From the NCBI GenBank assembly GCA_039000985.1, contig JAWBMD010000003.1, positions 1 to 64,000 on the forward strand: a DNA stretch of 64,000 bases, given 5' to 3'. The position numbers and the translations under genes are program-made. Below, one piece after another: positions 11,677 through 52,779 of the stretch. Every line of letters begins with the position of its first letter. Position 1 is the first letter of the stretch. The notes below the pieces were generated by a model. It saw only the letters and a program-made list of their open reading frames with translations. It was not told where the DNA came from and searched no databases. Source of the stretch: Candidatus Aenigmatarchaeota archaeon (lineage in GTDB: Archaea > Aenigmatarchaeota > Aenigmatarchaeia > CG10238-14 > SpSt-28).

Positions 11677-11805
11677 GGGCCCGTAGCTCAGCATGGTAGA
11701 GCGGCTGAGGCTTTTGCCGCCGATGCTTTTAAGCTGCTGGGCTAAAAGCTTTGATATGTGAAAGAAGAAACCAGTAGGTCGCGGGTTCAAATCCCGCCGG
11801 GCCCA
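11677..11805 (+). tRNA. tRNA-Lys(UUU) with two introns: 11708-11724 (position 30/31) and 11732-11769 (37/38)
   Basis: Acceptor GGGCCCG/CGGGCCC, D and T arms; removing both inserts gives GCTGG-CTTTTAA-CCAGT; intron 1 forms a full BHB (CGGC/GCCG). Confidence 0.9.
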
Positions 11806-12048
11806 TGCACTTTAAATATTTAAAGCTTTCTTACTCATCCTTAACGGAATTTCTAACGACAAATTCTAGGAATTTAACGGAATTCCCCACCAACCTACCT
11901 TCTCTAAAGCTTAAAGCAGGAGAAGGTTAGCTTCTGGTTTGATGGAAAATTGATAGATTACTTAGTACTAAGAAGAAAGATTGATTGAACTTTAAATTTA
12001 ACTTTCAATATGAAAGAAACTTTGCTATATTATTATTAATACTACTAT

Positions 12049-12561
12049 CTACTCCTTTAATACAATTAAATTTGACATTCCTCTTCTCCTTCTTTCTATT
12101 AAACCCCTAATTTCTAACCTATCAAGAATTCTACTTATTTTGACTTTTGAAAACCCAGTTTTCGAAATAAGATCGCCTTGAAAAATTGATCCACCAGCTT
12201 CTATAACTAATTCGTAAATCTTCCTTTCATCACCTTGTAAAGTTTTAGATATATGCTTAAACTTTGTTAGTTCTCTATTTGTTATTTGAACATGCTTTAT
12301 CATTAACATCAAATATAAACTTACTATAATTAAAATAGACGAAAAAAACAATCCAATTACAGATTCTATGGGTAAAACTCCCCTTTTAATCGGGCAAATT
12401 TCTGGTTCTAATGGACATTGTTTATGCAACTCTTCTCCATATTTCAGAACAGTTTGTGTCAATGAAAAAATAACAAAGATTAAACCTATAGCAATTCCAG
12501 CAATTATTATTCCAACAATTTTCAAATTACCATAATTTCTCTGCATAAATTTAGATAGCAT
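12049..12561 (-). CDS. membrane-anchored winged-helix transcriptional regulator (COG2512-like)
   Basis: two TM segments with a CP...CP loop, then GSIFQGDL...FSKVKISRILDRLE.RGLIERRRRG.SN. Confidence 0.8.
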   Translation of the reverse strand: MLSKFMQRNYGNLKIVGIIIAGIAIGLIFVIFSLTQTVLKYGEELHKQCPLEPEICPIKRGVLPIESVIGLFFSSILIIVSLYLMLMIKHVQITNRELTKFKHISKTLQGDERKIYELVIEAGGSIFQGDLISKTGFSKVKISRILDRLEIRGLIERRRRGMSNLIVLKE

Positions 12562-12691
12562 ATTTAGTTATTTCTAAGTTACAACTTTTATATTTTTTAC
12601 ACCATTCTTCACACTTTTCAGCCCAATGCCTTTCCTTGTATTTTAGTTTACATTCTTCGCAAACATAAAATTCATTTATTTTCTTTACCAT
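12551..12691 (-). CDS. small Cys-rich protein, 46 aa (not in ORF track)
   Basis: MVKKINEFYVCEECKLKYKERHWAEKCEEWCKKYKSCNLEITKYAI; overlaps both neighbours as expected in an operon. Confidence 0.7.
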   Translation of the reverse strand: MVKKINEFYVCEECKLKYKERHWAEKCEEWCKKYKSCNLEITKYAI

Positions 12692-13167
12692 ACTTTCTAC
12701 CTAATTCTTCATACCTTTCATATACACCTTTTCCAGTTTTTTCTTCAATTTTTTCAAATTCTTCTTTATCTTTTTTGTTCAAAACAGGATCAACTAGTGG
12801 GTATAAGATATTATTCTTTTTATCTATATGTTCTCTAAATAAAACAACAAAATCCTCCGCACTTTCTCTGAATTTTTTAAACTCTGCTTCTAACATAAAT
12901 AATTTTCTCAATTAATAACATAACTACTATTTGTCCGCCTTCTTTTGGAATTCCTTCCACTTCAGCTAATGGAAATAATGATTTTTCATCTTTCACATGA
13001 TGACATTTATCTGCAAATTGGCTAAAGAACTCTAAAAGCTTTTTTACATCAGAATGTAGAACTTTATTTGGACTAAGCTTACTGAAAGATTCTAGGATCT
13101 TTAATCCTTCTATGATTACCCCATATTCTTCTTTTAATATCTCTGTCGGGTTTTCTACTTTCTCCAT
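12672..13167 (-). pseudogene. hemerythrin/HHE domain protein, split and degraded
   Basis: N-half (FADKCHH..EK.LFP, GIPKEGG) and C-half (REHIDK.NNILYP) lie in different frames; several expected His/Glu ligands altered. Confidence 0.75.
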
Positions 13168-13642
13168 TTTTTATGCTTTTACTTAACCAATATAAACTTA
13201 ATAATAAAAGCGACAAACTTAATATTCTTAAAAAAGGAAAATAAGGTGCCAAAAACTCTAGGGTTATATAAGTTCCTATCAGTGCTAAAAGAAGAATTGG
13301 ACAGGAAGGACATATGCTAGTCAAAAATCCTGCTAAGATTCCACCTGAAAGTGTGCAAACTCCTTTAACACTTTTTTTCGAGTACCAGTAAAGTGCAATA
13401 GTAATACCGGATATCAAAGAAAAAACAACCATATAAATAATGTCAAATATTGTAATCGAGACTATTCTTATACTTTCGACATTAAATATCGGAATTGTTA
13501 TCAGACCCATCGAAAAAGAATATAGGAAAAGAATTATAGCAGTGAAAAAAGTTGTTATTAAAATGTATCTTTTTTCACTAAATACCGACTTCAATTTTTT
13601 CACAAATTTTATTTCTTTCAATATTTCAATTGGATTTTTCAT
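13079..13642 (-). CDS. membrane protein with CPSC motif (metal-homeostasis associated)
   Basis: four hydrophobic segments, GVCT..GILAG.LTSICPSC; directly downstream of copA. Confidence 0.65.
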   Translation of the reverse strand: MKNPIEILKEIKFVKKLKSVFSEKRYILITTFFTAIILFLYSFSMGLITIPIFNVESIRIVSITIFDIIYMVVFSLISGITIALYWYSKKSVKGVCTLSGGILAGFLTSICPSCPILLLALIGTYITLEFLAPYFPFLRILSLSLLLLSLYWLSKSIKNGESRKPDRDIKRRIWGNHRRIKDPRIFQ

Positions 13643-13674
13643 AATTTCTTTTTACGTTATAGAAATAAGTAAGT

Positions 13675-51246: not shown

Positions 51247-51544
51247 TTAACCGACTTGACGGCACGCCTCACGGTACGAGCTGACGGTGGCCATGCACCA
51301 CCGCTCGGCTTGTCTGGTAAGCCCTTCAGACTGACCATCATCCTGCCGTCTGCGCTGGTAAGATTTCCGGTGTCGAATCCAATTGAACCGCACGACCCAC
51401 CCCTTGTGTGTCCTCCCGCCAATTCCCTTAAGTTTCATCCTTTCGGACGTACTCCCCAGGCGGCCCACTTAACACCTTCGCTCCGGCACAGGGTACTCCC
51501 AAGGAGTACCCCACACCAAGTGGGCATCGTTTACGCCCAGGACT

Positions 51545-51624
51545 TTCCCGCGCAGATGGGGAGCAGTTCATTTCTCAAAGGATTAGATATTCTTCATATA
51601 ATCAGAAGATACTCCCAACCACGC
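51545..51624 (-). ncRNA. 16S intron after position 801 (80 nt) with a C/D guide module
   Basis: BHB CCCG/CGGG; interior CUGA..AUGAAGA-AUAUCUAAUCCU-UUGA..AUGAAC. Confidence 0.85.
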
Positions 51625-51703
51625 ACCGGGGTATCTAATCCCGATCGCTCCCCTGGGTTTCGTCCCTCACCGTCCGGACTGTTCCAGGCAGCCGCCTTCG
51701 CCA

Positions 51704-51900
51704 CTCACCCAACAGAGGTCGGCTTAAAAAAGACTGTTAGGAGTTTCTCTATAAAAAATAAAAACGTTGTTTTCTTTTTTCCAAGTAAATTATTTGGCAA
51801 CTCCTCTAAAAATTGTATTTTTTTTATTGTTAGAATTTCAATAAGTCTTTTAGTCAAAGCTCGAAGCGACTATAATTATTGACCGCCAACACTCTGCTGA
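51704..51900 (-). other. 16S intron after position 722 (197 nt), AT-rich interior probably an ORF remnant
   Basis: BHB CACC/GGUG, stem CAGCAGAG/CUCUGUUG. Confidence 0.85.
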
Positions 51901-52449
51901 CTGGTGGTCCCCATAGGATTAACGGATTTAACCCCTACCCTATGGGTACCGCTGCCCTCTCCCAGCCGCTAGACTAGCAGTATCTCCCCCAAGCTCACCA
52001 GTTTACTGGTGAATTTCAAGGGAGACTTACTAGTCCGGCTACGAACGCTTTAGGCCCAATATTCGTGCTCACCACTTGGGGCGCGGGTCTTACCGTGGCA
52101 GCTGGCACCCGTCTTGCCCACCCCTTATTCGCCCAACCGTTAACATTGGGCAAAAGCTCCTTACCAAAAGGTAAGAAGCACTCCGGCTACCCTCATCGGG
52201 CGTTAACCCATTGTGAAGGTTTCGCGCCTGCTGCGCCCCGTAGGGCCTGGACTCATGTCTCAGAGTCCATCTGGGGGCTCCCACTTCCATGGCCCCTACC
52301 CGTTATAGCCTTGTGGAGCTATTACCTCCACAACAAGCTGATAGGGGATAGTCTCATCCTCGAGCGGCTTCGAACGCCCCTTTGATATGGAGACATTCCA
52401 GTACTCCATATCTATGGGGTATTAGCCCCAGTTTCCCGGGATTATCCCC

Positions 52450-52482
52450 TTCGAGCCAAAAGTGATAGAAATCACTTATGGT
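52450..52482 (-). other. 16S hairpin intron near position 144 (33 nt)
   Basis: BHB CGAG/CUCG, stem CCAUAAGUGAU/AUCACUUUUGG. Confidence 0.85.
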
Positions 52483-52779
52483 CTCTCGAGGGTAGATTAA
52501 CTACCCATTACGCAGCAGTACGCCGAGGGCTTGCCCCTCACGGCTTGCATGGCTTAGTCGTAGCCGGATAGCAGTGAGCTCTGGTGGGATCAACCAGCAT
52601 CGAGAATGGCGGGAAATTCTCAATCTAGGTTTCATCAATTATAATCAACCCGTGTTCTTCTCGAACACGGAATCTAAGTGACCAAGGCGAAATTTACTTT
52701 TCATAAACATCTCTCAACGATTCTTCCAAGTTAGACACTCCTTGGTCAATAATATATATGGAAATTGGAATTTAAATAT

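Follow-up and report, generated by a model that had tools for sequence, protein, structure and literature searches.

A 64,000-nt stretch of DNA from a Candidatus Aenigmatarchaeota archaeon (the window; positions 1 to 64,000 of contig JAWBMD010000003.1, here C20, of a genome assembly of 843 kb, about 27% GC and 89.7% complete) carries five introns that very probably serve as box C/D guides. They lie in the genes for tRNA-Lys(UUU), elongator tRNA-Met and tRNA-Arg(UCU) and, in the 16S rRNA gene, after positions 801 and 1513. Each contains a stretch antisense to its host RNA, one unpaired base, an NNGA (D-type) box and a C-type box, so that the description of these segments in an earlier note on this DNA is borne out at all five. 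Judged from the sequences and their relatives, the guides are real, conserved and co-varying, and most likely direct sugar methylation of their own host RNAs. The earlier note took the five to be one system. Guides are indeed present in all of them; the single design is not, since rRNA introns and tRNA introns are built differently. We consider it probable that this lineage uses bulge-helix-bulge (BHB) introns as box C/D guide genes in two classes, by the mechanism proposed below.

BHB ends are present at all five introns, with the 4-bp helix, two 3-nt bulges and predicted cut past the second bulge base that mark archaeal BHB introns; circularisation, the further mark of such introns, is seen for the 1513 intron. 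The genome encodes fibrillarin and Nop5, for which the earlier note had proposed to look, as well as L7Ae and the splicing endonuclease EndA. Nop5 has 327 amino acids and scores under the NCBIfam cut-off. EndA aligns over its full length to PDB 4FZ2 (E 1e-95), which we take to be a broad-specificity three-unit enzyme; this type agrees with the relaxed BHBs of this genome. A SpoU/TrmL-family methylase was not found in the assembly, complete to the extent given above. Rfam C/D families give no match in the window, homologues scoring 19–27 bits against cut-offs of 42–54, and several boxes are degenerate, with up to three mismatches to the C consensus.

The intron after A1513 (49872–49958, minus strand) is an 87-nt four-box small RNA (sRNA) within its closing stem, identified by scans and covariation. 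Positions in 16S follow E. coli numbering, checked against rrsA, and those in 23S are numbered on rrlA. Box C (49940–49934), guide 1 (49932–49923), D' (49921–49918), C' (49914–49908), guide 2 (49907–49897) and a weak D box (49895–49892) follow in the order of archaeal box C/D sRNAs, with guides of 10–12 nt. The nucleotide paired to the fifth position upstream of the box (D+5) is the predicted target, A1408 (50050) for D' and C1535 (49850) for D, guide 2 pairing with 49853–49844. The last D box reads ACGA; the terminal C and D are degenerate here, and D is TTGA in most other relatives.

Guide 1 co-varies with 16S while its D+5 stays on a fixed base. In 49 16S-linked records from overlapping sources, it faces base 1410, part of its helix-44 target, as C or U against G in 43, as G against C in two and as U against A in four. 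Guide 2 tracks three 16S 3' ends, namely the usual anti-Shine-Dalgarno end in 47 records and altered ends in this genome and in G001. Because its D+5 shifts among phyla and this family has a weak D box, we read guide 2 as an anchor, whose pairing is backed by co-variation and at which methylation is doubtful. The 16S 3' end itself (49853–49842, minus strand) lacks the anti-Shine-Dalgarno core, as it does in G001 and in three genomes of genus g2.

RNA data containing this 16S come from sediment and hot-spring samples (four runs, X1, X2, X5 and X6). The back-joint from 49958 to 49872 occurs in contigs of X1 and X2 and in X5 (4 reads, 3 starts, expected strand) and not in X6. Thus the 87-nt circular joint of a discrete, stable RNA is seen in three of the four runs, from two studies, and its ends agree with the predicted BHB cuts within one base of ambiguity. 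The earlier note had suggested looking for circular introns in RNA data. The expectation holds for the 1513 intron; for the 801 intron, no circle is among the joints listed. Neither is an exact spliced joint at 1513; joints near it with differing letters and short sides probably belong to other organisms. The depth of the circle in X1, 275 against about 40 for the spliced contig, was not taken as a measure of abundance. Since guide-less introns circularise too, the circle indicates excision and persistence rather than function.

A scan of all species genomes with the pattern of the 1513 RNA gave 78 loci, among which 23 bacterial matches and one in Methanobacteriota were read as chance because the rest of the guide is absent. 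The archaeal loci are 16S introns at several sites near 1490–1520, a tRNA-Ser(UGA) intron in 11 records, and free loci in Nanoarchaeum equitans, Altiarchaeota and Undinarchaeota; the N. equitans counterpart is the sRNA13 locus. Named records with the intron-borne RNA are nearly all from Ca. Aenigmatarchaeota or unclassified archaea. Among the 61 relative genomes, 24 have the RNA in one copy each, and three relatives with an intron-free 16S 3' region carry it in tRNA-Ser. An alternative is that intron insertion left the antisense stretches behind, by inverted duplication or splice-site pairing, and that the boxes are chance matches in AT-rich DNA. The degenerate boxes of this genome and the overlap of C' with the splice helix in short introns would suit such an origin. 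Shuffle controls, compensatory changes, targets at least 105 nt from the insertion site, and the occurrence of the same RNA outside introns, expressed in N. equitans, make it extremely improbable, and for the 1513 RNA it is already refuted.

The intron after U801 (51545–51624, minus strand) holds two guide modules. Module A (guide 51612–51607, D' 51605–51602, C' 51597–51591) places D+5 on U793 (51633) with a pairing of 6 bp and a bulge. Module B (guide 51589–51580, 10 bp; D' 51578–51575, C' 51571–51565) places it on U788 (51638). The order guide-D'-C'-guide-D'-C' makes two tandem kink-loops, not the standard C-D'-C'-D with a terminal kink-turn. This intron is present in 11 of 30 16S loci. The U793 module is seen by eye in all 11, six of which pass a 7-bp filter, and a 10–11-bp U788 guide is additionally present in 6 of the 11. 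The U788 guide occurs in 13 of the 61 genomes, one each, six times in the 801 intron and seven times outside rRNA. The spliced joint at 801 was found in X5 (5 reads, 3 starts). An X1 contig that retains the 801 intron with the downstream introns spliced was not accepted as evidence for late splicing because it has 30 bases on one side.

Guides are found in further rRNA introns of the lineage. We scanned 102 rRNA inserts of 55–260 nt from 56 loci, four foreign-looking or duplicate loci being left out. A box-anchored guide of at least 9 bp is present in 36 of them, compared with 2.0 (maximum 5) in shuffled and 3 in reverse-complemented sequences; the count is diluted because some inserts are alignment artefacts. 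Local modules number 17 in 152, with 0.2 expected from the control. The majority of rRNA introns are guide-less. Recurrent targets are 16S A676, U788, 1051 and A1408 and 23S C1920, G2251 and U2438. The single-copy guides for A1408 and U788 vary in their location, being found in introns, tRNA introns, free genes or clusters. In this genome, an 87-nt 23S intron near 2307 (contig C12, L053) is a four-box sRNA with guides for U2438 and G2251, and the U2438 guide is present in 11 of 13 homologous introns. In relatives, guides to 23S C1920, 16S A676 and 16S position 1051 are borne by further introns; the hosts include a 23S intron near 1927 (L042, L058, L060, L062, L063), a 16S intron near 686 (L022, L023, L033) and 16S introns near 1362–1366. 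When the whole genome was scanned for four-box sequences with an rRNA match of 9 bp, two came up, the 1513 intron and a non-intronic sRNA directly upstream of tRNA-Pro(CGG) (32953–33002, minus strand), whose D' guide is directed to 16S C1402 (50056). In three other records (L359, L360, L361) about four guides, including those for U788 and C1920, stand in tandem in one non-intronic RNA as judged by eye.

The second class is found in tRNA introns. The module starts with a guide of 6–9 bp, antisense to the anticodon loop of the same tRNA from base 31. A single unpaired base separates the guide from NNGA, which a short loop joins to a C-type box. The tRNA-Lys(UUU) gene (11677–11805, plus strand; Rfam match) has two introns, without which it differs at two positions from the tRNA-Lys(CUU) of the genome. 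The first, at position 30/31 (11708–11724, plus strand), has a perfect 4-bp splice helix and no boxes. The canonical one (11732–11769, plus strand) has a guide at 11743–11749 pairing with bases 31–37, D' at 11751–11754 and, after a 3-nt loop, C' at 11758–11764; the predicted target is U34 (11728). In the elongator tRNA-Met intron (36409–36433, plus strand), guide 36413–36418, D' 36420–36423 and C' 36427–36433 point to C34 (36405), and the C box overlaps the splice helix. In the tRNA-Arg(UCU) intron (36511–36536, plus strand), guide 36514–36520 and D' 36522–36525 point to U34 (36507); C' at 36532–36538 spans the 3' splice site, with an alternative register at 36529–36535.

Eight of the ten canonical tRNA introns in the genome carry the module, those of Leu(CAA), Leu(UAA), Gln(UUG), Lys(UUU), Glu(UUC), Arg(UCU), Ser(UGA) and elongator Met; the Ile(UAU) and Tyr introns have no guide module. 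Their register has a single peak, with D+5 at base 34. The best match of each guide is to the tRNA that hosts it, although the Leu(CAA) guide matches Leu(UAA) equally well. Shuffle p values are 1e-4 to 0.016 (Met 0.005, Arg 1e-4); that of Lys, 0.015, was computed on a parse merging both Lys introns and was not recomputed after the parse was corrected. An artefact of the splice helix was rejected, since the guide and the partner of the 32–35 splice helix are separate segments and the guides are thus not a by-product of the 4-bp helix. All eight introns have one D'-loop-C' unit, not four boxes. They place N+5 on a fixed target as archaeal box C/D sRNAs do and lack the two-kink, bipartite structure of that family, so the modules would work like C/D guides while falling outside its two-motif membership.

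The tRNA introns of relatives were collected with box-blind patterns for nine anticodon groups in 61 genomes, from located loci and 100 further regions; the rows left out belong mainly to two genera that were already sampled heavily. Two AAG records were dropped as misparses. Because the parser requires a clean anticodon stem, double-intron genes such as the Lys(UUU) gene of this genome are absent from the count. The module is present in 106 of 128 distinct introns by the script rule, one Ser case resembling chance. By anticodon it is found in CAA 21/21, UAA 9/9, CAU 19/20, UUG 12/12, UUU 11/11, UUC 18/18, UCU 6/6, CCA 2/2, CGA 2/2 and UGA 6/11, and in none of the 16 Ile and Tyr introns (UAU 0/11, GUA 0/5). 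Position 34 gives the fit of D+5 in 107 of the 128, compared with 11–40 at offsets −3 to +3. The kink-loop stem co-varies as well, D1:C6 being paired in 103 of 106 and D2=C being accompanied by C5=G in 9 of 12. A loose two-motif filter is passed by 14 of the 128; five are Ser introns with the 16S sRNA, and the other nine are, by eye, overlapping repeats of a single C box. Fibrillarin is found in 59 of the 61 genomes, and its loss is therefore unusable as a control for guide-less families. A tRNA-Trp gene was not found in this assembly, and two Trp introns from relatives show the one-kink design. In a 201-genome sample of the phylum, inspected by eye, the Met module extends to two families beyond the order, and the guide is absent from initiator-type Met introns. 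A search of one size range for short guide introns in five genomes, including N. equitans, Undinarchaeota and Altiarchaeota, found none except the N. equitans Met intron. Machinery, conservation and co-variation thus support the idea of the earlier note that several tRNA introns and the 16S introns of this lineage carry C/D guides, and the conserved boxes and guide-target covariation that it had proposed to seek in relatives are there.

Whether the tRNA modules act before or after splicing can be judged from three signs in the sequences, which lead us to favour the unspliced pre-tRNA. The first is the Ser(UGA) module, which stands just upstream of the tRNA in 11 of 17 loci (8 distinct), in relatives whose Ser intron is otherwise occupied. 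These leader-borne guides form 8–14 bp with the precursor compared with 7–8 bp with the mature tRNA, and track three different intron starts. The second is that C' extends into exon bases 38–39 in eight introns, where 14 of 16 are paired in the precursor versus 9 of 16 in the circle. The third is that guide hairpin and BHB are mutually exclusive; of seven anticodon-arm folds, computed without kink energies, five favour the hairpin over the splice helix. Alternatively, Nm34, the sugar-methylated base 34, could be guided only after excision, by 22–45-nt circles acting in trans on other tRNAs, singly or paired on a Nop5 dimer. In 38 of 106 the circle would have a C-to-D spacer of 12–15 nt, similar in length to a typical guide; the Trp intron has been published as acting in trans (PMC7994747), and two paired units would satisfy the two-motif rule (PMC1635284). 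This is unlikely, as the Ser guides in the leader read intron bases, the C' of the shortest introns requires exon bases 38–39, and the spacers range from 8 to 28 nt, one outlier excepted.

Several points weigh against guidance by the introns, and against action on the precursor. Introns without guides also circularise, and the 801 intron has no circle among the joints listed. The D+5 of guide 2 in the 1513 RNA is 1535 here and 1533–1534 in other phyla, with a degenerate D box in this family. Of the 61 genomes, 37 gave no match to the sRNA13 pattern; they include all 18 genomes of one family, and 17 of these 18 encode fibrillarin. The sequences of relatives are not independent, owing to kinship, and the tRNA guides span just 6–9 bp. 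Met folds preferentially as a BHB, and Gln favours neither structure. In-register extension of the hairpin into the intron is weak, at 40 versus 28 of 87 pairs, and shows no offset-0 peak in 15 pairs. Single-motif C/D RNAs were active yet not site-specific in vitro, their N+5 specificity being lost (Hardin and Batey 2006, PMC1635284), and the Trp intron acts in trans according to the review that describes it (PMC7994747).

The modules might also bind L7Ae as folding or splicing switches or chaperones without methylation, the 1513 RNA merely tethering helix 44 to the 16S 3' end. The mutual exclusion of guide hairpin and BHB would suit a switch, guide 2 lacks a fixed D+5, and mammalian intron kink-loop RNAs suppress their own excision (bioRxiv 10.64898/2026.08.03.742641). 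A switch has no need of a fixed register, yet D+5 falls on base 34 in isotypes with measured or predicted Nm34 in other archaea, and also on C1402, A1408, 23S C1920 and G2251. We regard this explanation as quite improbable.

The preferred reading, guided methylation, would proceed as follows. In class 1, the 16S precursor is transcribed, the three-unit EndA would excise the 1513 intron, and ligation gives the 87-nt circle seen in the RNA runs. The circle would bind L7Ae, Nop5 and fibrillarin and methylate the ribose of A1408, with the second guide holding the 16S 3' end; the 801 intron would provide the U788 guide and the local U793 module. In class 2, bases 31–37 of the unspliced pre-tRNA would fold onto the intron guide beside the D'-loop-C' kink-loop, and L7Ae, Nop5 and fibrillarin would methylate base 34. 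The pre-tRNA would then refold into the mutually exclusive BHB and be spliced. Each guide would thus be delivered with its own substrate on one transcript. A plausible, tentative extension is that wobble methylation is carried out lineage-wide by a one-kink ribonucleoprotein acting in cis, that splicing is held back by the guide fold for as long as base 34 is unmethylated, that each guide gene is kept in one copy and relocates between introns of rRNA and tRNA, tRNA leaders and free loci, and that the rRNA introns are needed for ribosome assembly.

Guide function would mean that introns in archaeal rRNA and tRNA genes serve the cell, and would help to explain why genomes smaller than a megabase retain them. 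Intron-hosted guides would then have arisen in a prokaryote too, along a path that parallels eukaryotic snoRNAs. The tRNA modules offer a natural test of whether one kink motif suffices for site-specific methylation, which the in vitro study denies. The presence of one guide at no fewer than four (at least 4) 16S sites, in a tRNA intron and in a free gene makes the mobility of sRNAs testable on the tree.

The 16S rRNA gene (49842–52600, minus strand; mature 3' end putative) has seven introns. Among the five besides those at 801 and 1513, the two scanned have no guide and three lie outside the scanned size range. An 820-nt intron near 1195 (50261–51080, minus strand), with spliced and circular joints, has broken reading frames in three pieces, which we would guess to be a decayed homing endonuclease. 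Two 32-nt hairpin introns near 1102 (51181–51246, minus strand) flank a 2-nt exon (51213–51214) and have no guide; an RNA joint there skips 66 with two letters between. The remaining introns are one of about 195 nt near 722 (51705–51899, minus strand), in which no guide was found, and a 33-nt hairpin intron near 144 (52450–52482, minus strand), identified by RNA joints and a BHB check. A contig joint links sites flanking the whole 16S (window 49822–52630), as expected for a circular pre-16S intermediate. Outside the window, on contig C12 (minus strand, about 72790–72650), tRNA-Ile(GAU) is circularly permuted, its 3' half preceding the 5' half, and its outer ends can pair, as judged by eye, as a BHB at position 30/31.

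The literature, in which the term C/D is poorly searchable and subscription papers were mostly outside reach, yielded no report of archaeal rRNA-intron guides, of which the earlier note knew no description, or of a one-kink tRNA family. In Lui 2018 (PMC6009581) rRNA introns were removed before the target search. Some of the predicted sites have also been measured or predicted elsewhere. A1408 is a predicted target in two species (Dennis 2015, PMC4644070). Measurements on other archaea gave Cm34 and Um34 (Wolff 2020, PMC7668247), and the predictions for Pyrococcus and Pyrobaculum include free sRNAs directed to base 34 (PMC7994747, PMC6009581).

The precedents are the Trp intron and the N. equitans Met intron, and the guide job of introns is otherwise known for one or two tRNA introns. 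The Pyrococcus sR50/Haloferax pre-tRNA-Trp intron is a box C/D sRNA guiding Cm34 and Um39 (PMC7994747). It is likewise a tRNA BHB intron that bears C/D boxes and a guide directed to C34 of the host tRNA; it serves two sites in trans, whereas the introns here have 20–45 nt, one kink-loop, at least nine anticodons and signs of action before splicing. The elongator tRNA-Met intron of N. equitans, 66 nt long, stable and abundant (PMC3491384), shares the anti-anticodon stretch, followed by one base, a D box, a loop and a C box. It concerns a single tRNA, and that paper predicts no target for it, while here the design has shrunk to 25 nt and recurs in many isotypes. N. equitans sRNA13, with 45,100 reads and the same A predicted as target (Randau 2012, PMC3491384 supplement 2), shares both guides of the 1513 RNA and the predicted A1408, and the guides of sRNA11 and sRNA4 are directed to U788 and 23S G2251, as here. 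All three are free genes in N. equitans, whereas their counterparts here lie inside 16S, 23S or tRNA-Ser introns. Mammalian kink-loop RNAs are also compact intron RNAs with one kink-loop that may restrain their own excision (bioRxiv 10.64898/2026.08.03.742641); they lack antisense targets, whereas the modules here have a guide in a fixed D+5 register. Vertebrate intron-hosted snoRNAs are similar in that a guide is freed from an intron of the host transcript (PMC7994747). Their hosts are of mRNA type and their release is exonucleolytic, whereas here the hosts are rRNA and tRNA, and the guides are cut out by EndA and circularised.

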